A DNA stretch of 64,000 nt from the NCBI GenBank assembly GCA_964483655.1, contig CAZABW010000003.1:12252-76251 (forward strand). The letters run 5' to 3'. This stretch comes from an uncultured Candidatus Izemoplasmatales bacterium. Lineage in GTDB: Bacteria > Bacillota_I > Bacilli_A > Izemoplasmatales > Hujiaoplasmataceae. The translations under genes and the position numbers were made by a program. The notes below the pieces were generated by a model that saw only the letters and a list, made by a program, of their open reading frames with translations, was not told the DNA's origin and searched no databases. Positions 13,689-42,265 of the stretch are shown piece by piece (the stretch's first letter is position 1; each line of letters begins with the position of its first letter).

Positions 13689-13690
13689 CC

Positions 13691-14788: not shown

Positions 14789-14813
14789 AGAGGAAGTTTC
14801 TTCCTCTTTTTTT
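14788..14813 (+). terminator. intrinsic terminator
   Basis: AAGAGGAAG-ttt-CTTCCTCTT followed by a T-run. Confidence 0.8.
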
Positions 14814-14866
14814 CACCCTTAAGCGAGTGATTTAAGGAAATATCGAAGTGATTTTCGATCGCCCCT

Positions 14867-14895
14867 TTGAAATAATTGCAGCGGGATGCTACAAT
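14867..14895 (+). promoter_or_regulatory. near-consensus sigma-A promoter of the purine operon
   Basis: TTGAAA (14867-14872), 17-nt spacer, TGc-TACAAT (14887-14895). Confidence 0.6.
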
Positions 14896-14965
14896 AAGAA
14901 CAAATAAGTAGCTAAGACATCACGAATGACACGCCTCAAGAAGCCTTTTTCTAAGTCGAGGTCGT

Positions 14966-15538
14966 ATGATTACAGCCGTCATTCTCGCCGGAGGGAAATC
15001 CACCCGTACCGGTCGCAACAAACTCTTACTACCCCTTCATCATCAGTCTATTCTTCGTCATGCGATTCAATCCATGACGTCATTTGTCGATTCCATCGTG
15101 GTTGTCAGTGGTTTTTACGACCAAGAGATTCGTCAAGAATGCCAAGGCATCGACCGTGTGAAGGTTGTTTATAATCCAAACTATGAGCAAGGCATGTTCT
15201 TATCCGTTCGTCAAGGACTCACCCACAGTGAAGGGGATGTCTTCCTTCTGCCAGGGGATTGTCCCTTGGTACACCCAACTACCATCGAAGCTTTATTACA
15301 AGCGTCAGGTGAGTTACGTGTGCCAATGTATGCGAATCGGTATGGACATCCGCTTTTTTTATCTCAAAAAATGGTCAAGCTCTGTTTGCAAGAACCGCTT
15401 GACTCCAATCTACGAGCATTTCGAAACAAACACCAAGTGGAAACCGTTTCTGTCCTTGATGAACATGTTCTCGATGATATCGATACATTGGAAGAATATT
15501 TACAAATACAAGGGTCAACCTTGGAGGAGGTCGTATGA
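14966..15538 (+). CDS. mocA: MobA/MocA-like molybdenum cofactor nucleotidyltransferase (cytidylyltransferase type)
   Basis: N-terminal AVILAGGKSTRTGRNKLLLP nucleotide-binding loop, 190 aa, first gene of an XDH-family operon. Confidence 0.75.
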   Translation: MITAVILAGGKSTRTGRNKLLLPLHHQSILRHAIQSMTSFVDSIVVVSGFYDQEIRQECQGIDRVKVVYNPNYEQGMFLSVRQGLTHSEGDVFLLPGDCPLVHPTTIEALLQASGELRVPMYANRYGHPLFLSQKMVKLCLQEPLDSNLRAFRNKHQVETVSVLDEHVLDDIDTLEEYLQIQGSTLEEVV

Positions 15539-16335
15539 TTATTCAGGAATGGATTCGTCCAAAACACGTCGCAGAAGCGTATGAAGCATTCACCAAAGAG
15601 GACCGAAAAGCGGTTTTGTTTGGGGGAGGTGCGTGGTTAAAACTAACCCATAAACAGATTGATCTTGCCATTGACTTGCAAGATTGTGTAAAAAGCGAGA
15701 TTGAAGTAAAAGAGCACATGATTTCCATGGGAGCGATGACGCCGCTTGAGGGAATCACGACGCATCCCTACTTGAATGAGTTAGCCTCAGGAATCCTGCC
15801 CCAAGCCTGTAAGGTGGTGATGGGCCCATCGCTTCGAAATGTCGCAACGATTGGCGGGACCATTATGGGGAAATATGGTTTTTCGGATGTGATCCCCGTA
15901 CTACTAGCTTTCGATGCTATTTTGCAATTCCATAAACATGGCAATGTTTGGTTGCGTGAGTTTTTAGAAAGCGGCTTGGATAGCAAAGATATCCTCACTC
16001 ATGTGTTGATTCCGAAAGATTCCGCTATTGGGTATTTTCATTCTATGAAAAAAACGGCACTTGATTTTTCTATTCTCAACATAGCGATTTATAAAACCCC
16101 CCAAATGGATAAAATTGCGATTGGGGCGAGACCTCAAATCGCGATTCGTGCCTATCAAGCAGAGAATTTGTTAAATGAAGCCGACGTCATCGATGAAGCC
16201 TTCTTACAAGAGGTTGTCCAACAAATCATTCTCGAGTGCAAGGTCGGAGGCAATCAAGCAGCATCACAAGAATACCGAACGCAACTATTACAAACCCTTG
16301 CGATGCGAGGATTGAAGGAGGTTTATCATTTATGA
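15535..16335 (+). CDS. FAD-binding subunit of a molybdenum hydroxylase, YgfM-like
   Basis: 266 aa. The N-terminus and the motifs AVLFGGGAWL, MGAMTPL and RNVATIGGTI resemble my recollection of E. coli YgfM rather than canonical XdhB (AGGTD). Confidence 0.65.
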   Translation: MIIQEWIRPKHVAEAYEAFTKEDRKAVLFGGGAWLKLTHKQIDLAIDLQDCVKSEIEVKEHMISMGAMTPLEGITTHPYLNELASGILPQACKVVMGPSLRNVATIGGTIMGKYGFSDVIPVLLAFDAILQFHKHGNVWLREFLESGLDSKDILTHVLIPKDSAIGYFHSMKKTALDFSILNIAIYKTPQMDKIAIGARPQIAIRAYQAENLLNEADVIDEAFLQEVVQQIILECKVGGNQAASQEYRTQLLQTLAMRGLKEVYHL

Positions 16336-16787
16336 GTGTATCCTTTTGGTTGAATCAACGATTGGTTTCCCTCAATCCCGAACCGGGGGAAGTCTTATTA
16401 GATACCTTACGTACGCTAGGTCTTAAAAGTGTTCGCCGTGGGTGTGATCAAATTAGCTGTGGGGTTTGTACAGTCTTGCTCGAAGGAAACATGGTCCCTT
16501 CTTGTTCGGTACTGACTGTTCGAATCGCCAATCAACATGTCACGACTGTTGAAGGGATTGAAACAGAAGCGAAAAAGATTGCGAGTTATTTTGGTTCTGA
16601 AGGAGCCGATCAATGCGGATTTTGTAATCCAGCTTTAGCATTAGCTGTCTATTCTTTAAAACAAAGAAATCCCCAGGCATCTTTAGATGAGATTAAAGAG
16701 TACCTGGTTGGAAATTTATGTCGTTGTACGGGATATCAATCACAACATATCGCAATTCAACGATACTTACAGGAGGAGACGCTATGA
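16332..16787 (+). CDS. [2Fe-2S]-binding small subunit of a molybdenum hydroxylase
   Basis: RRGCDQISCGVCTV (plant-type cluster) and CGFCNP...CRCTGY (second cluster). ATGA overlaps on both sides. Confidence 0.85.
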   Translation: MSVSFWLNQRLVSLNPEPGEVLLDTLRTLGLKSVRRGCDQISCGVCTVLLEGNMVPSCSVLTVRIANQHVTTVEGIETEAKKIASYFGSEGADQCGFCNPALALAVYSLKQRNPQASLDEIKEYLVGNLCRCTGYQSQHIAIQRYLQEETL

Positions 16788-19096
16788 AAGTCGCATCGAA
16801 GCAACACGCATCGATAGATGGACTTGGTATTCTTTTAGGACGTCCTGCCTTTACAGACGATCTCATCGAAGCCAATGCCTTAACGATTGTTGTGAAACGT
16901 TCTCCTCATGCTTATGCACGGATCAAGCAAATTAACACGCTACCTGCAGAAACAATGCCCGGAGTAGAAGCCATTCTCACAAAAGCTGATTTTGCTCGCA
17001 TCGCTTATACTCGTGCTGGACAAGGATATCCAGAACCCTCTCCTCATGATAAATTTGTTTTCGATGATTATGTTCGATATATTGGGGATGAAGTGTGTGC
17101 GGTCGCTGCTATCAATCGTGAAATTGCTCAAGCAGCGGTTGACGCCATTGAAGTAGAATATGAAGTGTTACCTTCCGTCCTTGACTTTGAAAAAGCCATT
17201 GACCATCTCTGTGTCATTCATCCGGAAGAGGATATTTATGAAATGTTTCCCATTGGCTTTGAACCGAAACGAAACATCGCTGCCAGTTATCATATGCACA
17301 TTGGCAACGTGGAAGAAACGTTGGCTCAAAGTGAGATTGTCGTGGAAGAAACGTTCTATACCCAAGCCCAAGCTCACGCTATGATGGAACCCCATGCATG
17401 TAACGCGAGACTCGATTATTTAAATCGTTTAGTCGTCTATTCTACAACACAGACCCCTTTCCATGTACGGCGGATTATCGCGCAAGTTTTAGAGATGCCG
17501 TTGTCTCGTGTTCGTGTCATTAAACCTCGGGTAGGAGGTGGATTTGGGGGAAAACAAGCGATTCATGGGGACATTATTTGTGCCAAAATGACATTAAAGA
17601 CGGGAAAACCAACAAGATTAGTTTACACGCGAAAAGAGGTCTTTGAAGCGACCTATTCTCGTCATCCAATGAAAATCACGATGAAACTTGGTTCTAGTAA
17701 AGAGGGAGTTTTAGAGGCCATCGATTGTCATATTTTAAGTGACACAGGTGCCTATGGAGAACACGCTTTAACGGTCTTTATGGTGGCTGGTTCAAAGGTT
17801 TTACCCCTTTATAATAAAGTCAAGTCCGTTCGCTTTCATGGGAAAGTGGTCTATACCAATAAAACACCTGCAGGAGCATTTCGGGGATATGGAGCGATTC
17901 AAGGGAATTTCGCATTAGAATCGAGTATTGATATCATCGCAAAGAAATGTGGACTTTCCCCCATCGAGTTCCGCAAGAAAAATATGATGTTAGAACAGGA
18001 AACATCCCCAATCTTTGCGATTATGGGAGAAGGCACTGAAGGAACTGCCATGACGATGGAGACCTGTAAATTACCAGAGTGTATACAACGAGGTCACATT
18101 CTTATGGGATGGGATCAACCAAAAACCATTCCCCCCTATCCATACAAACGAGGAAGAGGAATGGCGATTGCGATGCAAGGGTCAGGAATTCCCTACATTG
18201 ATATGGGATCCGCTACGATTAAGTTAAATGATGATGGATTCTTTAACCTCTTAATTGGAGCGACAGAGATTGGCCAAGGAAGTGATACGGTCTTAGCTCA
18301 AATTGCGGCGGAAGGTTTGGAAACGTCTTTAGAGAATATTATCGTTTATTCCTCGGATTCCGATCTCACCCCATTTGATACAGGGGCGTATGCTTCCTCC
18401 ACCACGTATGTTTCAGGCAATGCAGTCCTGCAAGCTGCCCAAACAATGAAAAAACAATTGATCCATGAAGCTGCATTGGTCTTAGAGTGTGAGGATCAAC
18501 AAGTTCAATATGATGGCACCGTCTTTGTGAATCAAAGCAATCAAAATCAGATTACATTGAAAGAACTATCCTCCCGATTGTATTACAACCATGGTCAAAA
18601 ACAATTGATGGTTACGGAATCTTATGTAGGTCATAAATCCCCTCCGCCATTCATGGCTGGATTTTGTGAAGTATTAATCGACACGCAAACAGGTCATATC
18701 CAAGTCGAAAAATATACGAGCGTAGTCGATTGCGGCACCGTCATCAATCCGATGTTAGCGAGAGGACAAGTCGAAGGAGCGATACTCCAAGGAATGGGGA
18801 TGACGCTCTATGAGGAAGCAAATCGGAATGCCAGTGGAAAATTAATCGAAAATGATTTCTTACATTACCGGATTCCCACTCGAAAAGAACTTCCAACCTT
18901 ACTCACAGAGTTTATTGATAGTTATGAACCGTCTGGTCCTTATGGAGCGAAATCGGTTGGGGAAATCGGGATTGATACGCCTCCCGCAGCGATTGCCAAT
19001 GCCATCGAAGATGCGCTTGGCATTCGCTTAACAACATTACCTTTTAGCGCAGAAAAAATTTATTTCGCACTTCAATCAAAGGAGAAAAATCTATGA
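16784..19096 (+). CDS. molybdopterin-binding large subunit, xanthine dehydrogenase family (split XdhD-like)
   Basis: 770 aa with RVGGGFGGK, GAFRGYG and the C-terminal catalytic-Glu motif YGAKSVGEIG. Confidence 0.85.
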   Translation: MKVASKQHASIDGLGILLGRPAFTDDLIEANALTIVVKRSPHAYARIKQINTLPAETMPGVEAILTKADFARIAYTRAGQGYPEPSPHDKFVFDDYVRYIGDEVCAVAAINREIAQAAVDAIEVEYEVLPSVLDFEKAIDHLCVIHPEEDIYEMFPIGFEPKRNIAASYHMHIGNVEETLAQSEIVVEETFYTQAQAHAMMEPHACNARLDYLNRLVVYSTTQTPFHVRRIIAQVLEMPLSRVRVIKPRVGGGFGGKQAIHGDIICAKMTLKTGKPTRLVYTRKEVFEATYSRHPMKITMKLGSSKEGVLEAIDCHILSDTGAYGEHALTVFMVAGSKVLPLYNKVKSVRFHGKVVYTNKTPAGAFRGYGAIQGNFALESSIDIIAKKCGLSPIEFRKKNMMLEQETSPIFAIMGEGTEGTAMTMETCKLPECIQRGHILMGWDQPKTIPPYPYKRGRGMAIAMQGSGIPYIDMGSATIKLNDDGFFNLLIGATEIGQGSDTVLAQIAAEGLETSLENIIVYSSDSDLTPFDTGAYASSTTYVSGNAVLQAAQTMKKQLIHEAALVLECEDQQVQYDGTVFVNQSNQNQITLKELSSRLYYNHGQKQLMVTESYVGHKSPPPFMAGFCEVLIDTQTGHIQVEKYTSVVDCGTVINPMLARGQVEGAILQGMGMTLYEEANRNASGKLIENDFLHYRIPTRKELPTLLTEFIDSYEPSGPYGAKSVGEIGIDTPPAAIANAIEDALGIRLTTLPFSAEKIYFALQSKEKNL

Positions 19097-19728
19097 AAAA
19101 ACATCTATCTCTTATTCTTACTATCGTCTTTTTTGGTTCCATTTGGGGAATCATTGAAGCCACGATTGGGTATGTGCTTCATCTCGGGTTTGTTCCCCCC
19201 TTCCTAGCAGGAAGTCTGTTATTTCCTTTTGCCATGCTACTCTTATCAAAAGCATATCAAGTAACTCAAAATCGACTCTCTGTTGTAGGGATTGGCGTGA
19301 TTGCGGCCTTGATCAAAGGGGTGAATCTATTCTTCCCTTATACGAACGTTTTTAAAATCATCAATCCGATGATTATGATTGTGATGGAAAGTCTTCTTGT
19401 GTTCGTAGTCATTCAAGCTTTTCAAAAAGCATCTTGGCCCAAAAAGGTCGGCTATCTTCTTTTCGCTTCGATTGGATGGAGACTGCTCATGTGCCTTTAC
19501 TTTGGTGTTCAAACGTTGTTGAACCCCAGTTCCGTCGCATTTCAAATTCGTAGTTTCACGAATTTCATCCAATTCACAGTTCTCGAGGGGGGTATTTCAA
19601 GTCTTTTAGCACTCGGTCTGCTCGTGATTGATCATCGACTCCCTGTTCAAAAATGGAATTTTAGTAAGTCCTGGATTCTATCCCCCGCTGTCTTTGCATT
19701 TGCTATCATTTTAACGATACTGTTGTGA
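19093..19728 (+). CDS. uncharacterised 6-TM membrane protein embedded in the hydroxylase operon
   Basis: 211 aa, hydrophobic throughout. ATGA overlap with the Mo subunit, and its stop overlaps or abuts the xdhC-like start. I recognise no motif. Confidence 0.6.
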   Translation: MKKHLSLILTIVFFGSIWGIIEATIGYVLHLGFVPPFLAGSLLFPFAMLLLSKAYQVTQNRLSVVGIGVIAALIKGVNLFFPYTNVFKIINPMIMIVMESLLVFVVIQAFQKASWPKKVGYLLFASIGWRLLMCLYFGVQTLLNPSSVAFQIRSFTNFIQFTVLEGGISSLLALGLLVIDHRLPVQKWNFSKSWILSPAVFAFAIILTILL

Positions 19729-19736
19729 GGGATGCA

Positions 19737-20573
19737 ATGAATGCATTCATGGAGTCATTATATCAGTGGCAAAAAGAAGGACTCGGAGTGGTCATGATTA
19801 GTGTGGTTAAAAAACAGGGAGAAGGCCCAGTAGAAGTCGGTAAAAAACTCATTATCAATGAACTCCATCAAATGGTGGGTACCGTTGGGGGAGGAGCTTT
19901 GGAATACCGAGCCGTTGAAGAAGCGAAAATAATATTGAAAACCAAACAACCAAAACTGGAAACCTATCTCTTACATGAGGGAAAAGTGTATGCTGATCAA
20001 GTGACACTTCCGATGGTATGTGGGGGGGAAGTGAGTTTGTTTTATGAATACATGGGTCACCAAGCTCGCGTGTATTTATTTGGGGCGGGTCATGTGGCGA
20101 AAGCTACCGCAAAGATTTTAAAAACTTTACCCTTTCATATTACCGTGATTGATGATCGTCATGAGGTGATTCAAGGGTTTGAAGATTGTGATCAAGCCGT
20201 TGAAATGGCGTTTGTTCCATTTATTGAGACGATTGGAATCAAGGAAGATGCTTATGTAGTGGTTTGTACACCCAGTCATCAATATGATTATCATGTGATA
20301 AATAAAGTGTTAGAAAAGCAAATCAAACTGCGCTACATCGGGATGCTTTGTTCCCCCGCAAAACTCGCCGATTATTTGGAAAAAACAAAAGCACAGTTTG
20401 GTCCCTCGGTGGATTTAAGCCATTTTTATTCCCCGATTGGCTTAGATTTAGGAGGAGGGTCTCCCGCTGAGATTGCGATTTCAATCACCTCTGAAATCTT
20501 AGCAATTCATCATCAACGCAGCACTCTACGTCATATGCGAGAAAATCTCCATGATTCACTTCGTTACTGGTAA
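19737..20573 (+). CDS. XdhC/CoxI-family molybdenum-cofactor insertion/maturation protein (YqeB-like role)
   Basis: GGGALEYRA in the N-domain and a Rossmann-like LFGAGHVAKA in the C-domain. ATG at 19737 follows gtgaggg; an alternative GTG at 19725 would overlap the upstream stop. Confidence 0.75.
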   Translation: MNAFMESLYQWQKEGLGVVMISVVKKQGEGPVEVGKKLIINELHQMVGTVGGGALEYRAVEEAKIILKTKQPKLETYLLHEGKVYADQVTLPMVCGGEVSLFYEYMGHQARVYLFGAGHVAKATAKILKTLPFHITVIDDRHEVIQGFEDCDQAVEMAFVPFIETIGIKEDAYVVVCTPSHQYDYHVINKVLEKQIKLRYIGMLCSPAKLADYLEKTKAQFGPSVDLSHFYSPIGLDLGGGSPAEIAISITSEILAIHHQRSTLRHMRENLHDSLRYW

Positions 20574-21021
20574 GATTAACTCGGGGAAGACCACCCGACT
20601 CGTTGAACTTTATGAGCGTGATCAATTAGGGGATGGATTTATCGCTTTTAAAGTGATGAAAGGTCATCTTGTGGAACGGTATGATGCACGACAACTCTCT
20701 TCTCATGAAACGTTTCCTTATGTGATTCGTGATCAATTCGATACGGGAACGAAACCAATCCTTTGTCAAATTGGTCCTTACCGCTTTTATGAAGAAGCAA
20801 TCCGTCGGATTGAACGAGAAGTTCGACGGATGATTGAATACTCGATTGAACCGATTTATTTAGATGAAATCGGGATGTTAGAAATTCAAAAACAAGGCTT
20901 CTATTCCATTTTTCAGGAAATGGTCGATTCCCATTTAGATTGTGTGGTGTCTGCTCGACACGACTTAATTCCTCAAATTGTCGAAACGTTTCATATCAAG
21001 CAGTATAAAATCCTCTCTTAA
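20551..21021 (+). CDS. small P-loop NTPase (THEP1/DUF2478-like)
   Basis: 156 aa with Walker A GKINSGKT at residues 7-14 and Walker B IYLDEIG. 23-nt overlap with the xdhC-like gene. Confidence 0.6.
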   Translation: MIHFVTGKINSGKTTRLVELYERDQLGDGFIAFKVMKGHLVERYDARQLSSHETFPYVIRDQFDTGTKPILCQIGPYRFYEEAIRRIEREVRRMIEYSIEPIYLDEIGMLEIQKQGFYSIFQEMVDSHLDCVVSARHDLIPQIVETFHIKQYKILS

Positions 21022-21032
21022 AGGAGACACTT

Positions 21033-22322
21033 ATGTTTGATTCGGTGATTCGAAATGGGTTATGCTGGGTAAACCAAGCATTTATACCTACTCATGTATA
21101 TGTGAAGGATGGCAAAATTGCCAAACTCTCATCCACGGATTTCGAAGCGAAAACAGCCGTGGACGCGTCTGGATTTTTTGTCATTCCTGGCTTAATTGAT
21201 CCGCATACACATTTTGGATTAGTAGGTAAGAATCAAATCAGTAGTGAAGGATTCCATGAAGGGACCAAGAAAGCTCTTCGGGGGGGGATGACCACAATCA
21301 TCGATTTCTTAGAACCCAGTCAAAGTGTGAATGACATTCTGCAAGCTTTCCACATGCGCAAAGAAGCTGCGATGCATTCTCATTGTGATTACACCTTTCA
21401 TGCATGTTTGAAAGAACCCCAGGATTCTTTAGAGTCCATCGTTGAAACCGTTTCACGATTATCACTGAAAAGCATCAAAGTTTTCACAACCTATTCAGAA
21501 AGCAATCGCCAAATCAGTGATCCAAGTTTATATCAGTTATTAAAAGCGACGAAAGCGAAAGATATTCTCGTCACTGCTCATATTGAGAATGATGAACTCA
21601 TCATCAAAGATCCTATGCTTCCCTATCCGATGTTAGGACAGAGTCGCCCGACTCAAGCCGAAACCTTGGAAGCTTTAAAATTAGCTTCTTATGTCAAACA
21701 AACCCAAAGTCAGTTGTATATGGTTCATGTCTCTTCGGGTCAAACAGTCGTCGAATTGATAAAAAAGTATCCCGAACTCATCCATTCTTCGTTTCATCTT
21801 GAATCTTGTCCCCACTATTTTACGTTTCATGATTCCGTGTACACGAAGCCAAACGGATATTTATATGTCATGGCACCGCCCTTACGGAGCCCGTTGGAAC
21901 AGGAACTACTGATTCAAAATTTCCCTTCCATTGAAACGATTGGGACCGATCATTGTCATTATCCCGCTGAAACCAAACATAAAACCCATTTAGCAGAGAT
22001 TCCCTACGGTGTGGGGGGGATTGAACATAGTTTCGCAATGCTTTACACTCAGTTTGGAAACCAGGTGATTGACAAGATGAGCCGCCATGTGGCGAAGTTG
22101 TTTGGACTCCAACGAAAAGGTCAAATTGCAGAGGGGTTTGATGCCGATTTGGTGTTGTTTCAAAAAATCGACCCTACACCCATTCGATCATCAGAAGAAG
22201 ACATCTATGCGGGTCAAAGTGTCAATATCAAAATCCAACAAACGATATTACGGGGCATCACAGTCATGAAAGATGGTCGTGTAAATCCCCATAAAGGACA
22301 GTTTATTGGAGGGATGCGATGA
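21033..22322 (+). CDS. cyclic amidohydrolase, dihydropyrimidinase/hydantoinase family (HyuA-like)
   Basis: DPHTHF metal motif, SIKVFTTY (position of the carbamylated Lys), GTDH; 429 aa. Confidence 0.75.
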   Translation: MFDSVIRNGLCWVNQAFIPTHVYVKDGKIAKLSSTDFEAKTAVDASGFFVIPGLIDPHTHFGLVGKNQISSEGFHEGTKKALRGGMTTIIDFLEPSQSVNDILQAFHMRKEAAMHSHCDYTFHACLKEPQDSLESIVETVSRLSLKSIKVFTTYSESNRQISDPSLYQLLKATKAKDILVTAHIENDELIIKDPMLPYPMLGQSRPTQAETLEALKLASYVKQTQSQLYMVHVSSGQTVVELIKKYPELIHSSFHLESCPHYFTFHDSVYTKPNGYLYVMAPPLRSPLEQELLIQNFPSIETIGTDHCHYPAETKHKTHLAEIPYGVGGIEHSFAMLYTQFGNQVIDKMSRHVAKLFGLQRKGQIAEGFDADLVLFQKIDPTPIRSSEEDIYAGQSVNIKIQQTILRGITVMKDGRVNPHKGQFIGGMR

Positions 22323-27262: not shown

Positions 27263-28104
27263 TTCCCAAGACCCTTTTAGAAGCGCTAGAATTATTAGAA
27301 CAATCGCCCTATACCATTCTAGCAGGGGGAACAGACGTATTGGTGAAAGCACGTAGATGGGCAGGAACGAAGCGAACCTTCGCTCATCCTGCGATGTTCT
27401 TGCGTGAGATTGAATCATTACACACGATTCAATCGGATTCCCACATCTTAGAAATAGGCGCTTGTGTGTCTTTATCGACAATTGCAAAACACCCTCTCAC
27501 TCCGGCTTTGTTAAAGGAAACCATCACGGAAATAGCCTCACCAGCCATTCGCAATATGGCGACGTTGGGCGGGAATATTGCCAATGCTTCTCCAGCAGCG
27601 GATGGGGTTTTAGCCCTTTGTGCTTTGCAGGCAAAAGTGTTTATCCAATCAGCACAAAAAACTCGACTAATAGCCGTCGAAGAGATTGCCCTAGGACCTG
27701 GAAAAACGCATCTTGCGGCGAATGAACTGATTACAGCGATACATATCCCTTTGCTGGTAGACGATTTTCATGCATTTTACAAAGTTGGAACGAGACGAGC
27801 GGATGCAATTTCGAAAGTTGCTTTGGCGGGATTCGCACAGTTTCATCATCATAAAGTTTCGGAATGGCGACTCTATTTTGGAGCGGTTGGTAAAACCATC
27901 CTTTGGGATCATGAGTTAGATTTTTCGATGTTGGGGAAAACCAAAGAGATGATTTATGACGAGATGGAGGACATCATTTCCAAGTATGCACAAGTTCCCA
28001 CTCCGATTGATGACCAGCGTTCCACGAAACAATATCGCCAACTTGTCGCACGAAACCTAGTCAAAAAATTCATTCGGGAATGTTTAGGTGAAGTAGATGG
28101 ATAA
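27247..28104 (+). CDS. xanthine dehydrogenase FAD-binding subunit (XdhB-like)
   Basis: ILAGGTDVLV and ATLGGNIANASPAAD motifs; 285 aa. Confidence 0.85.
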   Translation: MAEHVIPKTLLEALELLEQSPYTILAGGTDVLVKARRWAGTKRTFAHPAMFLREIESLHTIQSDSHILEIGACVSLSTIAKHPLTPALLKETITEIASPAIRNMATLGGNIANASPAADGVLALCALQAKVFIQSAQKTRLIAVEEIALGPGKTHLAANELITAIHIPLLVDDFHAFYKVGTRRADAISKVALAGFAQFHHHKVSEWRLYFGAVGKTILWDHELDFSMLGKTKEMIYDEMEDIISKYAQVPTPIDDQRSTKQYRQLVARNLVKKFIRECLGEVDG

Positions 28105-29806
28105 AACGACAAGAGACATTATTTTAGGATTACAACCAGCAAAACTTGTACTCAAACATGCCTCTGTGATTCATGTTCATGATGGCACGATTGAAGTTGC
28201 TGATATTGCCATTCATAAAGGAAAAATCGCGGGAATTGGGGAGTATTTTGGAATAAAGGAAGTGGATTGTACTGGTCTTTTCGTTGCGCCGGGGTTCATC
28301 GATGGGCACGTTCACATTGAATCTTCGATGCTCACTCCCAGTCGCTTTGCAGCGCTCGTTTTACCGTTTGGAACGACTTCGGTCATCGCCGATCCGCATG
28401 AAATTGCAAATGTGTGCGGAGTCGAAGGGCTTCGCTTTATGATCGAGGATGCAAAAAGAGCTAATCTCGACATTCACTTTATGATTCCTTCGTGTGTCCC
28501 AGCAACCCCCTTTGAAACAGCAGGGGGACAAATCCGAGTCCAAGATATCCAAGCGTGGAAACAAAAAAAGAAAGTCCTAGGCTTAGGAGAAGTCATGGAT
28601 TACCCGAGTGTCTTATCGCTAGAACCCACGATGATGGCAAAGATTAAAGCGATGAATTCTCGCGTGATTGACGGGCACGCTCCTTCCTTGCAAGGGAAAG
28701 AGTTATCGCTTTACCACGCGATTGGAATCCAAACCGATCATGAAGCCATCACGCAAGAAGAAGCGAAAGAGCGCGTGAAAATCGGGATGTATGTTCACCT
28801 TAGACAAGGATCTCAAACGCAAAATGTACTGGATTTACTTCCTGCCGTCACGCCGGATAACCATCATCGATTCTTATTCTGTAGCGACGATTATCATCCT
28901 GCAGACATACTCGCAAAAGGACATATCAATCACCATGTGAATCTAGCGATCGAGTTTGGAATTCCACCCATGCATGCCATCCGAATGGCAACCATCAATG
29001 CAGCTACTTGTTATGGACTTCATGATGTTGGTTCGATTGAAGTAGGAAAACAAGCGAATTTCATTTTGTTTGATTCCCTGACACACATCGTTCCTAAAGC
29101 CGTGTATTATCACGGAAAACAGGTGAACCAAATTCCTGAAGTACCTCCTTTAAAGAAACCAGATTTTCCAAGTGTCTTTGATACGATTCATCTACCGAAG
29201 CAACCCTTGGATTTTACCCTTCCAGTCTCTTCTCCTTATGTACATGTCATGGGATTGGAAAAGAATAATGTCACAACAACCAATGAAAAGCATCAAGTAA
29301 CCTTAAAAAATGGCTTCTTCGAAAGTGATATCTCACGAGATTTCCTGAAGTGTTGTGTGGTCGAACGTCACAGTGCTTCCGGGCGGATTGGAAAAGCCAT
29401 TGTCAAAGGCTACGGGTTAAAACAGGGAGCGATGGCGATGAGTATCGCCCATGACTCCCATAATATCATCACCATCGGTGTGGATGATGTCTCGATGGCC
29501 ACTGCAGTAAAGCAAATCGAGTCGATAGGTGGAGGGATTGTCATCGCCAATCAACAAGAGATTGTGGCCTTCTTACGCCTTGAAATCGCTGGGATTATGA
29601 CTCAAAAAGATGCCATCCAGGTTAGAAACACCCTCCAAAATATGGAAGAAATCATACGTGAGATGGGGGTCCATCCAGAGATTCAAGATCCCTTCTTACA
29701 ATTAGCATTCTTAGCTTTACCCGTGATTCCGAAGTTGAAACTGACCGATTATGGCTTATTTGATGTCGAAAGGTTTCACTGGACACCTTTAGAATGGGAG
29801 GATTAA
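28097..29806 (+). CDS. ade: adenine deaminase
   Basis: 569 aa with PGFIDGHVHIESS and the overall length of Ade/AdeC. 8-nt overlap with the FAD subunit gene. Confidence 0.8.
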   Translation: MDKTTRDIILGLQPAKLVLKHASVIHVHDGTIEVADIAIHKGKIAGIGEYFGIKEVDCTGLFVAPGFIDGHVHIESSMLTPSRFAALVLPFGTTSVIADPHEIANVCGVEGLRFMIEDAKRANLDIHFMIPSCVPATPFETAGGQIRVQDIQAWKQKKKVLGLGEVMDYPSVLSLEPTMMAKIKAMNSRVIDGHAPSLQGKELSLYHAIGIQTDHEAITQEEAKERVKIGMYVHLRQGSQTQNVLDLLPAVTPDNHHRFLFCSDDYHPADILAKGHINHHVNLAIEFGIPPMHAIRMATINAATCYGLHDVGSIEVGKQANFILFDSLTHIVPKAVYYHGKQVNQIPEVPPLKKPDFPSVFDTIHLPKQPLDFTLPVSSPYVHVMGLEKNNVTTTNEKHQVTLKNGFFESDISRDFLKCCVVERHSASGRIGKAIVKGYGLKQGAMAMSIAHDSHNIITIGVDDVSMATAVKQIESIGGGIVIANQQEIVAFLRLEIAGIMTQKDAIQVRNTLQNMEEIIREMGVHPEIQDPFLQLAFLALPVIPKLKLTDYGLFDVERFHWTPLEWED

Positions 29807-29807
29807 T

Positions 29808-31046
29808 GTGAACCTACAAGGATTTGTTTGTACAACCTGTGGAAAATTTTATTCTTCCTTACCTCAAGGAATGATTTGCGAGGATTGTACACAACAAGGT
29901 ATTTTGGATGTTGTGTATGATTATCAAGCAATCGCAAAGGAATTTCATCCAACAACTCTTCGGTTGAATCCAGATTCTTCGATGTGGCGTTATCTTTCCT
30001 TACTTCCCGTAAAAGAAAAACCAAAACAGGGATTACATGTCGGGGGAACTCCGTTGTATTCATCCCAAGCCTTCGCCAGCCAAGTAGGACTGAAGTCGCT
30101 TTACATTAAGGATGATGGGCTCAATCCTACCGGATCCCTGAAAGACCGTGCCTCCATCGTTGCTTGTGTGAAGGCCATCGAAGAAGGAAAAACGATTCTT
30201 TGTTGTAGTTCGACAGGAAATGCGGCGTCCTCTTTAGCTGGGAATGCGGCGAAACTGGGATTGCAAACCGTCATCTTCGTCCCGAAGCGCATCCCGATCG
30301 GGAAACGAACTCAATTGCAATTATTTGGTTCGCACGTGATTGTCGTAGATGGGGATTATAAGGCTGCATTTCAGTGTTCCAAACAAGCGATTGAGACCTT
30401 TGGCTTTTACAACCGCAACGCGGCAATTAATCCGTTCCTTGTCGAAGGAAAGAAGACAGTGGCTTTAGAAATTGCTGAACAAATGCAGTTTCAAAACATA
30501 GACTGGGTCGTTGTTTCAGTAGGCGATGGCTGTACCATTGCAGGAGTGTATAAAGGATTTTACGATCTGTTCCAGTTGGGGTTGATAAAATCGATTCCCA
30601 AACTTTTAGGGGTACAAGCATCCGGTTGTCGGCCTTTCGTGGATGCTTGGGAACATCAAAGAGATGTACAAGAAAGCGAAGAACAAACCTTAGCTGATTC
30701 GATTGCAGTCGGGATTCCTAGAAATCCCAAGAAAGCAATCCGAGCCATCCAAGAGTCGAAAGGATGTTTTGTGAGTGTTTCGGATGAGGCGATTCTTTCA
30801 ACGATGGCTTTCCTAGGAAAAACAGAAGGTTTATTCGTAGAACCAGCCAGTGCTGCCGGATTCGCAGGGTTAATCGAAGCGTTTCAAAAAGGCATCATCC
30901 GATCGGAAGAGACAGTGGTTGTAATTAATACTGGAAATGGATTAAAAGATATTGAAAATGCGAAAAAGGCGGTTTCAGAGCTCGATATCACACCAAATGA
31001 TTGGGAGTCTGTGAAGCAGCTTTTCCATAAAGAAGGGATACTATGA
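29808..31046 (+). CDS. threonine-synthase-like fold-type-II PLP enzyme with an N-terminal Cys4 zinc ribbon
   Basis: GTG start 1 nt after the ade stop. CTTCGKFY...CEDC ribbon and NPTGSLKDRAS (PLP-Lys motif of the ThrC family). Confidence 0.65.
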   Translation: MNLQGFVCTTCGKFYSSLPQGMICEDCTQQGILDVVYDYQAIAKEFHPTTLRLNPDSSMWRYLSLLPVKEKPKQGLHVGGTPLYSSQAFASQVGLKSLYIKDDGLNPTGSLKDRASIVACVKAIEEGKTILCCSSTGNAASSLAGNAAKLGLQTVIFVPKRIPIGKRTQLQLFGSHVIVVDGDYKAAFQCSKQAIETFGFYNRNAAINPFLVEGKKTVALEIAEQMQFQNIDWVVVSVGDGCTIAGVYKGFYDLFQLGLIKSIPKLLGVQASGCRPFVDAWEHQRDVQESEEQTLADSIAVGIPRNPKKAIRAIQESKGCFVSVSDEAILSTMAFLGKTEGLFVEPASAAGFAGLIEAFQKGIIRSEETVVVINTGNGLKDIENAKKAVSELDITPNDWESVKQLFHKEGIL

Positions 31047-32410
31047 GAACAATACCATTTGGCCCAACCTATGAAGAAATGTTGGACCCAAACAAACAAG
31101 ATCAACGAATCAAAGGGTTGAAAGAACAACACAAAAACGACGAACTACACCCGATTCATCTGTTCGACATCACCTGGAAAAATGCGGAAGGAATGGTTCG
31201 TAAAATCATCTTACCCAAAGAACTGACAGGCGTGGATTGCAATATCGTTGTCTTATTGGGATGCTACTTCCCATCTGGTTCTCACAAGGTGGGACCGGCT
31301 TACTCAACCTTAATTGAAGGATGTGTCGATGGAACGATCATTCCAGGCGAGCATACGATTTTAGGTCCTTCGACAGGGAATTTCGGGATTGGCGTATCGT
31401 ATATTTGTAATCTGATGAAATACGATGCAATTGTGATTATGCCAGATAATATGTCGAAAGAACGATATCTTCGAATTGAGAAGTATGGAGCGAAACTTGA
31501 CTTAACTCCTGGAACCGAAAGTGATGTCATCTTGACCCTTGAACGGACGTATGAGTTAAAGAAAAACCCAAAGAATCGGACTTTAGCTCAGTTTGAACTC
31601 ATGCCCAATTATCGCTTTCACCGTTATGTAACAGGCAATTCCTGTGTTGAAGCAGTGAAAGGCATTGGTAACTCGAGAATTGCATGTTTCACCTCCGCTC
31701 CTGGTAGTGCGGGAACCTTAGCGGCAGGAGATGAAATCAAAGTTCATTTTCCTGAAGCGAAAGTCGTCGCGATTGAACCTTATGAGTGTTCTACTTTAAC
31801 CGATGGCGGCATTGGCCAACATCGGATTGAAGGCATCGGGGATAAAATGTGTACCTTAATTCATAACATCATCAATACCGATTTTGTTTGTATGGTGGAA
31901 GATGATGACTGTGTGAAAGGATTAAAGATTCTTCATGACGCTCCTCATTTATTACAAGAAATTGGCATCTCAAAAGCGACATCATTGGCAATGGTTGACC
32001 TCTTTGGAGTTTCAGGAGTCTGCAATATTTTAGGCGCAATCAAAATGGCGAAATACTTAAAACTCGGCCCGAATGAAAACGTAGTTACAATCGCGACCGA
32101 CGGGTTTGACCGCTATGATTCAGTGATTCAAGATCTCAATCGACGCGTGTTAGAAACCGAAGATTTCGTCTTGCGTCGATGGTTGAAAGACGTCTTCTGG
32201 CAAGCGGACGTTTCCAAAATATTAGATACGAGATCAGAGGAAGCCAAAAACCGCTTATATCTTCAAAAAGAACGAGATTGGCTGAAGTTTGGATATACGT
32301 TGGATTATCTGAATGCAATGAAACACCTTGATTTTTGGAATCAAGAGTATGAAAAGATCCACCATTATAATGAAGCGATACTTTCCTTGCGAAAGGAGCC
32401 ACAAGAATGA
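31043..32410 (+). CDS. fold-type-II PLP enzyme, cysteine-synthase/TrpB/OrtB-like, 455 aa
   Basis: [11 protein letters not shown] (Lys motif), PSTGNFGIG (phosphate loop) and [12 protein letters not shown] overlap with the ThrC-like gene. Confidence 0.6.
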
Positions 32411-33639
32411 ACTATGCTCAAATCTTAGCTTGTGCAAAAAAATATGAAAAAGAAATGGTGAAGTTTCTTCGAGATATGATTGCGATTCCGAGTGAATCAT
32501 CCCAAGAAGAACGCGTCATTCAACGAATCAAAGAAGAAATGATTCATGTTGGCTTTGATCGTGTGGAAATCGATCCCATGGGAAATATCTATGGCTATTT
32601 AGGTTCAGGAAGCCATCTTATTGCGATGGATGCGCATATTGATACCGTTGGCGTTGGGTTATTAAGCAACTGGACTGTCGATCCCTATCTGGGAGCGGAG
32701 GATGAGCACTTTGTCTATGGACGCGGCGCAAGTGATCAAGAAGGCGGAATGGCTTCAATGGTCTATGCGGCTAAAATCATCAACGAACTCGACTTAAAAG
32801 AAGACTACACCCTACTCGTAGTTGGTTCTGTTCAAGAAGAAGACTGTGATGGACTTTGTTGGCAATACATCATCGAAGAACAAAAAATTCGTCCCGAGTT
32901 TGTGGTAATAACGGAACCAACTAGTCTGAATATCTACCGCGGTCACCGGGGTCGGATGGAAATCAAAGTCACAACACAAGGAGTGAGTTGCCATGGCAGT
33001 GCTCCTGAACGAGGCGATAATGCGATTTATAAAATGGCGCGTATCATTCAAGAAGTCGAGGCACTTCACCCTACCTTACAGAGTGACCCCTTTTTGGGAA
33101 AAGGAACGTTAACTGTTTCAGAAATTTTCTTTTCTTCGCCCTCTCGGTGTGCAGTAGCGGATGGGTGTTCGATTTCCATCGATCGACGCTTAACGAAAGG
33201 CGAAGATGATACTTTAGCTCTTTCTCAAATCCGAAATTTACCGAGTGTCAAACAGTATGGGGCTCAAGTGGAAATGTATGACTATGCCCGTCCCTCTTAT
33301 ACGGGATTGGTATACCCAACAAAGTCTTACTTTCCGACCTGGGTGTTAGAGGAAGAACACCTTGCTTGCCAAACCTTAAAACATAGTTATATCCAACTCT
33401 TTGAAGAACAACCTAAAATCGATAAATGGACGTTTTCTACGAATGCAGTATCGATTATGGGTCGATTTGGGATTCCTTGCATTGGCTTTGGTCCTGGACA
33501 TGAAGTCGAAGCCCACGCCCCCAATGAGAAAACCGTAAAACTTGAATTAGTCAAAGCCGCCGCGATGTATGCGACGATTCCCAGCCAGTATTTATCGATG
33601 CTTCAACCCAAAGGAGAGTCATATGGAACCACTATTTAA
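32407..33639 (+). CDS. ygeY: M20-family metallohydrolase, YgeY-like
   Basis: 410 aa with [15 protein letters not shown] and EEDCDG motifs of ArgE/DapE/YgeY-type peptidases; adjacent to a YgeW-like gene. Confidence 0.7.
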
Positions 33640-34606
33640 AGGAAGACACTTTATTACCCTAGAAGAATGGACAAAAGCAGAAATTGATACCTTACTCGAT
33701 GTTTCCAAAGATTTAAAATATAAGTTTCATCATAATGTCCCTACCCCTTATCTCACCAACAAAACAGCTTTCTTAATGTTCTTTGAGCAATCCACTAGAA
33801 CGCGTAATTCGATGGAATCGGGTCTCGCTCAACTAGGGGGTCATGCGACGTTTTTAGATACTTCGATGATGCAAATCTCTCATGGAGAGTCCGCAAAAGA
33901 TACCGCAATTATCTTATCTTCCTATGGTCATGGAATCGCATGTCGAAACTGTTTTTGGCAAGTTGGCAATCAATATTTACGGGAAATGGCAGCGCATTCG
34001 AGTGTGCCGATTATGAATTTACAGTGTGATTTATATCATCCTATGCAAGCGTTAGCAGATTTAATGACGATTCAAGAAGTAAAGAAAACAACACAAAACT
34101 TGAAAGTGTCGATTATTTGGGCCTACGCAACCAGCCATAAAAAACCGATTAGTGTACCCTTATCGCAAATCTTACTATTCCCAAGGTATGGCATGGACGT
34201 GACGCTTGCTTATCCAGAAGGCTATCCCTTACCCGATTGGGCAATCGAGAAAGCCCGGAAAAATGCACTTGAGAATGGCGGATCCTTCCGCATCACCCAC
34301 AACATGGAAGAAGCCTATCGTGACGCCGATATTGTCATTCCAAAAAACTGGGGTTCATGGGTTGCCAATCAATCGACTCAAGTGGTCGATGATCAACTAA
34401 TCAAAAATAAAGCATGGAAGTGTACCCAAGCGATGATGGATTTAGCTGCTCCAGATGTGTGCTATATGCATGCCCTTCCTGCAGACCGAGGCAATGAAGT
34501 CGAAGATGCCGTCATCGACGGGCCCCATTCGATTGTTTATCAAGAAGCAGAGAATCGTCTTCATACAGCGAAAGCGGTCATGGCGATGACGATGGGAAAT
34601 AAGTAA
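33623..34606 (+). CDS. ygeW: YgeW-like carbamoyltransferase (aspartate/ornithine carbamoyltransferase superfamily)
   Basis: STRTRNS carbamoyl-phosphate motif, and HALP in place of the canonical HCLP, near the C-terminus. ATG at 33623 follows aaaggagag. Confidence 0.7.
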
Positions 34607-34611
34607 CTCAT

Positions 34612-34650
34612 AAAAAATGGAGCTAACGGGGGACCGTTAGCTCTCTTTTT
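34612..34650. terminator. bidirectional intrinsic terminator
   Basis: GAGCTAACGG-gggga-CCGTTAGCTC, flanked by AAAAAA and TCTTTTT. Ends the 18-gene operon and the convergent deaminase gene. Confidence 0.85.
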
Positions 34651-36083: not shown

Positions 36084-36126
36084 ATCTGTTATCTGGCAAA
36101 GATGAAACAAGAAATGAGGACTCAAA

Positions 36127-36687: not shown

Positions 36688-36779
36688 GCAAATCGATTGC
36701 GAATTTCTCACAATCTTCATAAACTTATGGTATAATAACGCAAGATTGTTAAAATAACCGATGGATGGGAGGCGACAAG

Positions 36780-39263: not shown

Positions 39264-39264
39264 G

Positions 39265-42226: not shown

Positions 42227-42265
42227 AAACTCAAACAAATGTCAACAGACAAAGGAGAAAGACTT

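Follow-up and report, generated by a model that had tools for sequence, protein, structure and literature searches.

What pathway is encoded by a run of 18 consecutive plus-strand genes in the genome of an uncultured Candidatus Izemoplasmatales bacterium, and could it carry free purine bases all the way to pyruvate? The genes (g01 to g18) span positions 14966-34606 of a 64-kb stretch of contig CAZABW010000003.1, the whole of which (64,000 nucleotides) is referred to here as the window. A sequence-only reading had recognized in them the gene repertoire of the E. coli ygeW...xdhD region for anaerobic purine/urate catabolism, in what might be a variant form. The repertoire is borne out by profile searches and by comparison with E. 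coli, and the variant form by substitute enzymes, namely the reductase UacX, a pair of pyridoxal 5'-phosphate (PLP)-dependent enzymes, and a short carbamoyltransferase. It is quite probable that this one operon specifies a self-contained variant of the 2,8-dioxopurine pathway, from free purine bases to pyruvate, in an uncultured anaerobe of the wall-less type. The gene content, motifs, and synteny that point this way are observed directly, and co-induction in relatives comes from published transcriptomes. The pathway itself is known and the locus has been seen before in Izemoplasmatales; what is new is the set of substitutions, in which UacX, a short YgeW-type enzyme, the PLP pair, and a membrane protein/NTPase pair occur without YqeB or YqeC. 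Judged by sequence, the features that appear to be previously undescribed are the ThrC-like/CysK-like pair in the place of YgeX, the short "mini-YgeW" carbamoyltransferase, and the membrane-protein/NTPase pair beside XdhC; a literature search found no paper describing the PLP-pair variant or the other substitutions.

The reductive degradation of urate through 2,8-dioxopurine was reconstituted in 2025 for E. coli, C. difficile, and C. sporogenes, so that the earlier statement that most individual reactions are unassigned is outdated (PMC12507026; bioRxiv 10.1101/2025.04.24.650524). Urate is converted to 2,8-dioxopurine by XdhD-YgfM or, in C. sporogenes, by DOPDH, encoded by xdhAC (PMC12507026; bioRxiv 10.1101/2025.04.24.650524). 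The 2,8-dioxopurine is reduced by YgfK, for which C. difficile uses UacX, a PydA-like FMN/[4Fe-4S] protein (PMC12507026). SsnA and HyuA open the two rings to yield 2,3-diureidopropionate, YgeW frees one ureido group as carbamoyl phosphate, from which YqeA generates ATP, YgeY takes off the other ureido group, and YgeX converts 2,3-diaminopropionate to pyruvate and ammonia (PMC12507026; bioRxiv 10.1101/2025.04.24.650524). The intermediates are (R)-configured (bioRxiv 10.1101/2025.04.24.650524), and SsnA (IPR017700/TIGR03314) is the marker gene of the pathway.

Families were assigned with NCBIfam hidden Markov models (HMMs) and their curated cut-offs, with Pfam, and by direct comparison with the proteins of E. 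coli K-12. Homologous clusters were collected as 80 SsnA-centered metagenome loci together with loci from genomes and contigs (cited below by L numbers), and their genes were classed by tblastn against the proteins of the window and of E. coli. The NCBIfam cut-offs were passed only by adenine deaminase, YgeY, and, misleadingly, the product matching the threonine synthase (ThrC) model. The profile search that had been proposed as a check thus mostly returned the expected families as the top-ranked ones, with most scores under the curated cut-offs and the carbamoyltransferase ranked as an ornithine carbamoyltransferase (OTC). The labels first given to the genes (MocA, two FAD/FeS/Mo sets, XdhC-like, hydantoinase-like, SsnA-like, PreA-like, adenine deaminase, two PLP enzymes, and YgeY) mostly hold.

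Two molybdenum (Mo) hydroxylases are encoded, and they can be told apart by their Mo subunits, in an alignment that also included E. coli XdhD and XdhA and the orthologues of three relatives. Mo subunit 1 (Mo1; g04, 16784-19096) matches XdhD at 36.5% over the whole Mo domain (494 bits) and XdhA at 32% (386 bits), and scores 575 bits against TIGR03313, a model that takes in the fused FeS domain and has a cut-off of 1102. The alignment gives g04 two XdhD-only insertions that occur neither in XdhA nor in Mo subunit 2. One of these holds E606 (FAIMGEGTEGT vs LGAIGEGKAPT), with a 10-residue gap in XdhA and Mo subunit 2, and E606 of XdhD has been proposed to orient urate (PMC12507026). Being closer to XdhD than to XdhA and carrying both the E606 insertion and a GEG motif, g04 has the marks of an XdhD-type Mo hydroxylase, predicted to interconvert urate and 2,8-dioxopurine (DOPDH). 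Its 2x[2Fe-2S] subunit, recognized by HMM and by comparison with E. coli, is the product of a separate gene (g03, 16332-16787), whereas in E. coli XdhD the FeS part is fused to the Mo subunit. The FAD subunit (g02, 15535-16335) is YgfM/XdhB-like, with YgfM as its best E. coli match (25% identity, E = 5e-17); XdhB and YgfM-family HMM scores are both under cut-off, and its orthologues have the Pfam domains FAD_binding_5 and CO_deh_flav_C.

Mo subunit 2 (Mo2; g11, 24685-26784) is without the XdhD insertions, and it scores highest with the HMMs PucD (347 bits) and Se_dep_XDH (306 bits), under the cut-off of each. Its GGAFGGKEE, FRGFG, and GTGE motifs supply a Glu, an Arg, and a Glu, respectively, at what we take to be the positions of E802, R880, and E1261 of bovine xanthine oxidoreductase (XOR); at the first of these positions Mo1, XdhD, and XdhA have Gln. 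HMMs and motifs together predict a xanthine/hypoxanthine dehydrogenase, completed by a 2x[2Fe-2S] subunit (g12, 26774-27262; 41% identity to E. coli XdhC) and an XdhB-like FAD subunit (g13, 27247-28104; 30% identity to E. coli XdhB). On the strength of the XdhD-only insertion with E606 in Mo1 and the XOR-type Glu/Arg/Glu triad in Mo2, g02-g04 are assigned as the putative urate/2,8-dioxopurine enzyme and g11-g13 as the putative xanthine dehydrogenase.

The reductase predicted to act on 2,8-dioxopurine is encoded by g10 (23613-24704; PF01180 and Fer4), a protein of 363 amino acids with a DHO_dh FMN domain and two [4Fe-4S] (Fer4) motifs and without an FAD/NADPH domain. The same architecture has been described for C. 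difficile UacX (PMC12507026), and by this architecture g10 fills the place of the YgfK-or-UacX reductase. The initial label of PreA-like reductase holds as far as it goes, the protein now being recognizable as UacX, the described replacement of YgfK, and this identity explains the absence of YgfK. A full-length YgfK of 1003 amino acids stands in the slot of g10 in the otherwise syntenic loci L006, L015, and L022; since both proteins occupy the same slot in otherwise syntenic clusters, there is good evidence that YgfK and UacX are equivalent in this cluster. Just upstream of the operon, a gene for an EFR1-type flavodoxin-[4Fe-4S] ferredoxin fusion (12496-13293) is co-transcribed with an M48 peptidase gene. 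Such a fusion is a plausible low-potential electron carrier, its position being kept only in the close relative L007. It was considered as the electron donor of UacX and set aside, as it belongs to a separate, terminated unit conserved only in L007.

Ring opening would fall to two amidohydrolases. The SsnA-like protein g09 (22319-23632), whose predicted reaction is opening of the six-membered ring in reduced 2,8-dioxopurine, scores 331.6 bits against NF005540 (cut-off 444) and 310.9 bits against TIGR03314 (cut-off 455.5), with the next family at 114 bits, and is 31% identical to E. coli SsnA. The HyuA-like cyclic amidohydrolase g08 (21033-22322), predicted to open the hydantoin ring to 2,3-diureidopropionate, reaches 222 bits with TIGR02033 (cut-off 393) and 27% identity to E. 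coli HyuA, and a g08-type gene always adjoins ssnA in the loci compared. YgeY, an M20 amidase (g17, 32407-33639), has 667 bits against a TIGR03526 cut-off of 321.5 and 66% identity to its E. coli counterpart; it is predicted to hydrolyze the remaining ureido group to give 2,3-diaminopropionate. At the entry to the pathway, g14 (28097-29806) is an adenine deaminase, converting adenine to hypoxanthine (TIGR01178, 581.9 bits against a cut-off of 472.5). A guanine deaminase (guanine to xanthine) of the cytidine deaminase (CDA) fold is encoded by g19 (34649-35134, minus strand, 161 amino acids), which converges on the operon from its own transcript. That a guanine deaminase gene lies at the 3' end, as first proposed, is upheld by the best solved relative of g19, the guanine deaminase of B. 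subtilis (1wkq/1tiy, E = 5e-38; 1wkq is the match concerned), and in L003, L006, L090, and L091 the cluster likewise closes with such a gene.

The carbamoyltransferase (g18, 33623-34606) consists of 327 amino acids and is the most conserved protein of the operon (72-97% among relatives). HMMs place OTC (TIGR00658, 257.3 bits, cut-off 280.85) over the two YgeW models (197 and 180 bits, cut-offs 453 and 500), and identity to E. coli YgeW is 37%. The protein carries the YgeW signatures WAYxxSxxKPxSVP and PK[NS]W and not the OTC motifs GDGNNV and DVWxSMG: it reads PKNWGSW at the DVWxSMG position, where YgeW has PKSWAPY, it matches YgeW at the GDGNNV position (WAYSPSYGKPLSVP in YgeW), and it has HALP where OTC has HCLP. 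The YgeW motifs are kept in most orthologues in which they could be checked. The earlier YgeW-like label therefore stands on signature motifs and not on HMM scores, which rank the protein as OTC-like and below every curated cut-off. In size g18 resembles OTC, being some 70 amino acids shorter than YgeW and without its insertions. Because the OTC score is under the cut-off, the ornithine-binding motifs of OTC (DxxxSMG and HCLP) are absent, and the YgeW motifs are present, g18 is best described as a short YgeW-type enzyme and not an ornithine carbamoyltransferase, and is predicted to release a ureido group of 2,3-diureidopropionate as carbamoyl phosphate by phosphorolysis.

For the final step, two fold-type II PLP enzymes are encoded between adenine deaminase and YgeY. 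The first (g15, 29808-31046) is ThrC-like with an N-terminal CxxC...CxxC zinc ribbon, and passes the threonine synthase model TIGR00260 with 211.3 bits (cut-off 167.1). Its motifs were compared with those of four crystallized threonine synthases. The ThrC motif NPxR[IL]EGQKT reads NPx[LM]xEGKK, its Arg having given way to Leu or Met both in the window and in each of the 15 related loci with a located motif, and PVGNAGN reads [SP]VGDG (SVGDG in most; GDG(C/T)) in the window and 14 such loci. The Arg is presumably the one that binds the substrate phosphate in the T. thermophilus enzyme, and with its loss g15 is unlikely to be a true threonine synthase despite the TIGR00260 score. Relative to threonine synthases (TIGR00260; T. 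thermophilus 1UIM, Aquifex 2ZSJ), it is alike in fold and PLP lysine motif at some 35-40% similarity, and differs in the extra zinc ribbon, the altered Arg and GNAGN motifs, and its context of purine catabolism. The second enzyme (g16, 31043-32410) is CysK-like, has 455 amino acids, and reaches 126 bits with the cysKM HMM (cut-off 344). The core of its AlphaFold2 (AF2) model superposes on structures of CysK and beta-cyanoalanine synthase (TMt 0.75-0.82), and no structural match was found for N- and C-terminal extensions of about 55 and 90 amino acids. The g16 family shows 70-76% identity across many metagenome-assembled genomes (MAGs) of Izemoplasmatales, Acholeplasmataceae, and Bacilli, and its genomic context was this cluster in all four cases sampled.

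It had been noted that YgeX is absent, and no orthologue was indeed found in the window, g15 and g16 having only 24% and 22% identity to YgeX over partial length; YgeX is, however, not merely absent, as this conserved pair stands in its place. The ThrC-like gene occurs in 18 of the fetched loci and in L090 and L091, and the CysK-like gene in 12 and in L090 and L091. YgeX has an orthologue in only one fetched locus, L024, which has neither PLP gene, and the pair is retained in a Clostridia MAG with shuffled gene order (L003). The two genes do not always travel together: the ThrC-like gene is present without its partner in a cluster with a long YgeW (L035), while the CysK-like gene is found in every locus with a short carbamoyltransferase (the window, L003, L005, L006, L018, L029, L090, and L091) and is absent from the long-YgeW loci L027 and L035, a co-occurrence resting on small numbers from few lineages (two main ones). 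The mutual exclusion with YgeX across loci is the main argument for the pair as its substitute, and the balance tips slightly toward g15 and g16 simply replacing YgeX, with g15 predicted to take part in the step from 2,3-diaminopropionate to pyruvate and g16 predicted to be its partner or to carry out a second step.

The cluster recurs well beyond the window. The order MocA-FAD1-FeS1-Mo1-(membrane-XdhC-NTPase)-HyuA-SsnA-UacX/YgfK-Mo2-FeS2-FAD2-Ade-ThrC-like-CysK-like-YgeY-carbamoyltransferase was found in more than 12 loci, the relatives L006, L008, L009, L011, L025, L026, L090, and L091 having the gene order of the operon. Protein identities across syntenic loci drop to about 35-60% and the flanking genes vary, so that the recurring order between differing flanks delimits the unit. 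A lineage of Clostridia MAGs (L003, L028, and L029) has the same catalytic genes, both PLP genes included, in another order. Among GTDB species genomes, the SsnA-like protein had a single match, in a distant Clostridia MAG (39% identity), and exact-protein searches led only to metagenome contigs of 7 and 3 kb with 98% nucleotide identity. In Izemoplasmatales, both purine deaminases were reported to be co-localized with xanthine dehydrogenase genes (Wasmund et al., 2021, PMC8289736). In Xianfuyuplasma coldseepsis zrk13, a cluster of 19 locus tags (G4Z02_01105-01195) rose in expression as one block both with thiosulfate and in situ, its products being listed as an Fe-S protein, xanthine dehydrogenase-related proteins, guanine/adenine deaminase, NTPase, nucleotidyltransferase, aminohydrolase, "ornithine carbamoyltransferase," "cysteine synthase," and "threonine synthase" (PMC8397711). 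In Hujiaoplasma nucleasis zrk29, 18 locus tags (HF295_00920-01005) were induced by added DNA/RNA (PMC10470597). Neither paper tied its cluster to urate degradation, and in both the last genes were read as amino-acid metabolism (PMC8397711; PMC10470597). From product lists and gene count (19 and 18 genes), and not from sequence, we infer that these are the same cluster as the operon. Some Izemoplasmatales relatives differ from it in having YgfK for UacX, no membrane/NTPase pair, a LigT-like 19th gene, or an adjoining carbamate kinase. The inducer in zrk13 was 100 mM thiosulfate, an effect left unexplained by the authors (PMC8397711); possible links are sulfur supply for a sulfurated Mo cofactor (XdhC) or the CysK-like enzyme. 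Carbamate kinase genes (52-59% identity to E. coli YqeA) are found upstream of mocA, in divergent orientation, in L018 (2103-2957, minus strand) and L034 (2-604, minus strand), and beside the PLP genes in L069 (392-1249), a linkage that the genome of the window has moved or lost.

From these genes a complete route can be proposed, in which we infer every catalytic assignment in the source organism, above all the roles of g15, g16, g05, and g07. Adenine and guanine would be deaminated to hypoxanthine and xanthine by g14 and g19, and both products would be oxidized to urate by Mo2 with its FeS and FAD subunits (g11-g13). Mo1 and its partners (g02-g04) would strip the 6-oxo group from urate to give 2,8-dioxopurine, the ring of which would be reduced by UacX (g10). 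SsnA (g09) would then open the six-membered and HyuA (g08) the five-membered ring, yielding 2,3-diureidopropionate. One ureido group would be released by g18 as carbamoyl phosphate, to be used by a carbamate kinase encoded elsewhere to form ATP, and the other would be hydrolyzed by YgeY (g17), leaving 2,3-diaminopropionate for g15 and g16, which would jointly do the job of the missing YgeX and produce pyruvate and ammonia. MocA (g01) and XdhC (g06) would mature both molybdenum cofactors, with g05 and g07 as an accessory module for uptake or cofactor supply. An FAD subunit accompanies each Mo enzyme, which could allow NAD(H) to pass between the two. Counted from hypoxanthine, the scheme would be redox-neutral, as xanthine dehydrogenase gives up four electrons and Mo1 and UacX together take up four.

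Some observations weigh against this scheme. SsnA, HyuA, both Mo subunits, MocA, XdhC, and the carbamoyltransferase match their expected families best at scores under the cut-offs, as expected of a divergent lineage. The roles of g15 and g16 are predicted, and two enzymes stand at a step for which YgeX by itself is enough. Neither a carbamate kinase nor a recognizable purine transporter, a regulator, selD, yqeB, or yqeC was found in the window; the absences listed by the sequence-only reading (carbamate kinase, YgeX, YgfK, permease, dedicated regulator, and selD) hold across its whole length. The published transcriptome clusters are matched to the operon by product list and gene count only, and the 2025 papers differ as to the ureido group that YgeW takes off first (PMC12507026; bioRxiv 10.1101/2025.04.24.650524).

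Other pathways would make different use of the same genes. The operon could be a mosaic in which purine genes (for Mo enzymes, deaminases, and amidohydrolases) make up the first two thirds and the last four genes are ordinary threonine and cysteine synthases, an ArgE/DapE deacylase, and an OTC that are merely co-transcribed with them. This is how both Izemoplasma papers annotated them, and automated matching agrees, as g15 passes TIGR00260, g18 and g16 rank highest with the OTC and cysteine synthase models, and the best matches in the Protein Data Bank are ThrC, CysK, and OTC. We nevertheless regard it as highly unlikely. The supposed deacylase is a YgeY equivalog (667 vs 321.5 bits, 66% identity to E. 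coli YgeY); g18 falls under the OTC cut-off, is without SMG and HCLP, and has the YgeW motifs; the ThrC Arg and GNAGN are lost from g15 in the cluster copies with located motifs; and g16, with 455 amino acids and extra domains, is far under the CysK cut-off. Moreover, the four genes stay with ssnA/uacX in the shuffled lineage (L003, L028, and L029), and this cluster is the context of the g16 family in every sample. Barely credible is either a classical clostridial purine fermentation, proceeding from xanthine through 4-ureido-5-imidazolecarboxylate and formiminoglycine to glycine, or a reductive pyrimidine pathway with PydA/PydB/PydC-like enzymes. The former comes to mind because Wasmund et al. 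compared the loci with those of purinolytic clostridia (PMC8289736), yet genes for formiminotransferase, cyclodeaminase, and glycine reductase are lacking from the window. The latter is suggested by the resemblance of g10 and g08 to PydA/PreA and dihydropyrimidinase and by the amidase g17, and is opposed by the presence, within one operon, of xanthine dehydrogenase and purine deaminase genes. The hallmarks of the 2,8-dioxopurine pathway, an XdhD-type enzyme with the E606 insertion, an SsnA-like protein, a YgeY at 66% identity, and the interchange of YgfK and UacX, speak against both.

A different ending to the 2,8-dioxopurine pathway deserves more weight, though we consider it rather unlikely. 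The PLP pair might consist of a D/L-diaminopropionate racemase and an L-specific lyase, or might perform a beta-replacement leading to serine or cysteine, which would be salvage and not fermentation. Such an ending would account for two enzymes where one YgeX suffices, and the core of g16 has the fold of a beta-substituted-alanine synthase. Relatives of ThrC and CysK normally use L-substrates, and the intermediates of the pathway are (R)-configured. The homologous cluster of X. coldseepsis is thiosulfate-induced, and g16 accompanies all short carbamoyltransferases and is absent with the long YgeW of L027 and L035. Against it, the sampling is phylogenetically narrow (two main lineages), and the mutual exclusion would be accounted for just as well if the pair simply took over the function of YgeX.

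The prediction that the 18 genes form a single transcript in the Izemoplasmatales organism studied draws on their arrangement, confirmed by the ORF listing and junction table to be one of 18 same-strand genes between a promoter and a bidirectional terminator. Seven of the 17 junctions are ATGA-type overlaps of 4 nucleotides and another seven are longer overlaps of 8-23 nucleotides; the remaining gaps measure 11 nucleotides at g07/g08, the largest, and 1 nucleotide at g14/g15. With GTG 19725 as the start of g06, the g05/g06 junction overlaps by 4 nucleotides; with ATG 19737, the start that gene callers chose in the homologous locus L007, it becomes an 8-nucleotide gap, which reproduces the earlier count of 14 overlapping junctions with gaps of 1, 8, and 11 nucleotides. 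A GGAGG-like Shine-Dalgarno sequence precedes most of the 18 gene starts. The 5' limit is set by a hairpin with a T-run (14787-14815, plus strand) that terminates the upstream PadR/HAAS unit and reads AAAGAGGAAG-TTT-CTTCCTCTTT, then TTTTT. It is followed by the promoter TTGAAA-17-TACAAT (14867-14895, plus strand), called near-consensus at the outset and confirmed with 10 of 12 consensus matches and a TG-extended -10 box, which is the top plus-strand match in a promoter scan of the region and is kept in L007. TG-extended -10 boxes also precede mocA in the distant relatives L008 and L009. In the 5' untranslated region of the operon, nothing matched Rfam and folding was not significant (z = 0.49), and a riboswitch or leader there was rejected on these grounds. 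A possible operator is the inverted repeat ATCGAA-N6-TTCGAT (14842-14859), which ends 8 nucleotides ahead of the -35 box; its right arm is not kept in L007.

At the 3' end, a bidirectional intrinsic terminator (34612-34650), common to the operon and guaD, scores on both strands, its stem (34619-34644) having 11 base pairs, six of them G-C, and a folding energy of -21.3 kcal/mol (z = -7.3 vs shuffles). Internal signals that might split the unit were scanned for, and matches lie at chance level: 31 promoter-like against 40.7 +/- 6.5 expected from shuffled sequence, and 22 terminator-like against 18.6 +/- 5.6 expected. Conserved synteny with differing flanks, together with published co-induction of what is apparently the same cluster in two cultured relatives, supports the prediction of a single transcript.

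As to maturation of the Mo enzymes, the selenium-dependent label originally given to the operon finds no support. The MocA-type Mo cofactor cytidylyltransferase (g01, 14966-15538) has 132 bits against TIGR03310 (cut-off 186), 149 bits against the DVU_1551 family, and 25% identity to E. coli MocA. Next to Mo1, g06 (19725-20573, start possibly ATG 19737; Pfam XdhC_CoxI and XdhC_C) encodes an XdhC-family chaperone for maturation or insertion of the Mo cofactor, and matches YqeB (28% identity) over residues 1-253 only, the N-terminal XdhC-like half. The neighboring g07 (20551-21021) encodes a P-loop NTPase of the THEP1/NTPase_1 family (PF03266, E = 1.5e-7) with a weak match to 1ye8. E. coli YqeB and YqeC, as positive controls, match TIGR03309 at 417 bits and TIGR03172 at 241 bits, and neither g06 nor g07 matches these models even at E <= 10; hhalign of g07 with YqeC gave a probability of 0.1 and nothing beyond the P-loop. 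HMM controls and hhalign thus rule out g06 as YqeB and g07 as YqeC, g06 matching only the generic XdhC half of YqeB and g07 belonging to THEP1/NTPase_1, and the C-terminal domain of YqeB (TIGR03309) was not found in any fetched locus. In C. sporogenes, both DOPDH and xanthine dehydrogenase need SelD, the gut strains with the cluster all had YqeB, YqeC, and SelD, and no sequence signature separates Se- from S-dependent enzymes (bioRxiv 10.1101/2025.04.24.650524). With selD not found in the window, a plain XdhC, and no selenium-trait marker, selenium dependence of the operon is unsupported.

Between Mo1 and XdhC, g05 (19093-19728) encodes a membrane protein of an undescribed family with only 32 homologues found, all unnamed. 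Neither g05 itself nor a scan of all 25 family members at E <= 10 gave a Pfam or NCBIfam match, and assignment to a known transporter family was rejected. The AF2 model (pLDDT 89.6) has seven helices, and its sole plausible fold match is the borderline one to the energy-coupling factor (ECF) S component 5edl (TM 0.50-0.53, probability 0.94, E = 0.5); a Pfam match of g05 to ECF S components was not found, nor were Ecf genes in the window. By this model g05 is possibly an ECF-type S component and may, as a weak suggestion, be the missing uptake component. The genes for g05 and g07 occur together in 12 loci (including L007-L009, L011, L014, L018, L021-L023, L025, and L026) and are absent together from three otherwise syntenic loci (L010, L015, and L034), whether or not an XdhC gene lies between them. 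This points to g05 and g07 as probably a two-gene functional pair, for which a role in transport or maturation has about even odds.

Comparison with the E. coli K-12 region (ygeW-ygeX-ygeY-hyuA-yqeA / mocA-ygfK-ssnA-ygfM-xdhD) brings out what is shared and what has been exchanged. Common to both are an XdhD-type hydroxylase with its FAD partner, SsnA-like and HyuA-like amidohydrolases, YgeY, MocA, a carbamoyltransferase with YgeW signatures, a guanine deaminase gene nearby, the predicted intermediates, and pyruvate as predicted end product. The E. coli genes form several transcription units, whereas one 18-gene operon is predicted here, in which YgfK is replaced by UacX, YgeX by the ThrC-like and CysK-like pair, and YgeW by a 327-amino-acid form without insertions. 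Carbamate kinase, YqeB, YqeC, a permease, and a sigma-54 regulator are missing from the operon, its guanine deaminase has the CDA fold and not the amidohydrolase fold, and, unlike in E. coli, xanthine dehydrogenase and adenine deaminase are encoded within it. The uricolytic clusters of C. difficile and C. sporogenes (UacX, UacY; XdhAC = DOPDH) are alike in having UacX for YgfK (C. difficile) and in their anaerobic Bacillota hosts. Clostridial Mo enzymes have no FAD subunit and make no use of NAD(P)H (PMC12507026; bioRxiv 10.1101/2025.04.24.650524), in contrast to the FAD subunits on both enzymes here. C. difficile uses the hydrolase UacY for YgeW, whereas the operon keeps a carbamoyltransferase, and the clostridia keep YgeX, carry YqeB, YqeC, and SelD, and are selenium-dependent (bioRxiv 10.1101/2025.04.24.650524).

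The rest of the window is unrelated to purines, comprising an Mrp antiporter, a GGDEF-HD sensor, the M48 peptidase, PadR/HAAS, GrpB, GNAT, amylases, maltodextrin ABC transport, and lysine fermentation. PadR/HAAS (13377-14788) was rejected as regulator of the operon, not being conserved upstream in L008 or L009. A sensor of the 5TMR-LYT/PAS/GGDEF/HD-GYP type lies a few kilobases upstream both in the window (8315-11095, minus strand) and in L007 (1-2000), and a shorter 5TMR-LYT/GGDEF/HD protein is encoded immediately upstream in L008 (3615-5618); this may be coincidence or a conserved regulatory neighbor. Downstream, relatives (L006 13575-21359, L090, and L091) have a gene for a LigT-like 2H phosphoesterase directly after the carbamoyltransferase, followed by genes for Exo_endo_phos, TraX, YjeF, a hexapeptide transferase, an HD protein, an unknown protein, and MscS. 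The window keeps the order LigT (48434-48967), hexapeptide gene (49230-49844), and MscS (61192-62151), with a GrpB/GNAT/amylase-pullulanase/maltodextrin-ABC block (35280-48304) parting the operon from LigT and a lysine-fermentation block further on. Both blocks have the look of islands that entered a conserved backbone. Directly upstream of the plus-strand lysine fermentation operon (50763-59239) is a lysine riboswitch (RF00168, 64.6 bits, 50548-50720). This operon encodes a MaoC dehydratase, CoA-transferase A/B, a thioesterase, a beta-keto acid cleavage enzyme, lysine 2,3-aminomutase, and lysine 5,6-aminomutase alpha/beta; as it is catabolic, lysine would have to turn expression on through the riboswitch, whereas the usual biosynthetic type is an off-switch.

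The operon points to particular gaps in current understanding of the pathway: what replaces YgeX, whether a 327-amino-acid carbamoyltransferase can take over from YgeW, and how Mo enzymes are matured without YqeB and YqeC. A tentative proposal, which we think possible though doubtful, is that the PLP pair and the short carbamoyltransferase represent a new chemistry of C3-N2 disposal and, separately, that the membrane-protein/THEP1-NTPase pair is a new uptake or maturation module replacing YqeB/YqeC; were the latter true, the urate dehydroxylase would be selenium-independent or differently matured. Searches at the level of family PF00291 would silently count the ThrC-like and CysK-like genes as YgeX. 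Compact, FAD-linked, and possibly selenium-independent versions of the pathway could serve the engineering of urate-degrading probiotics. The operon also offers a mechanistic reading of clusters that were strongly induced but left uninterpreted in two transcriptome studies. Izemoplasmatales-type anaerobes are known degraders of DNA in sediments. A pathway defined in gut bacteria is now indicated, in a complete version from base to C3 compound and as a single unit, in such free-living organisms.

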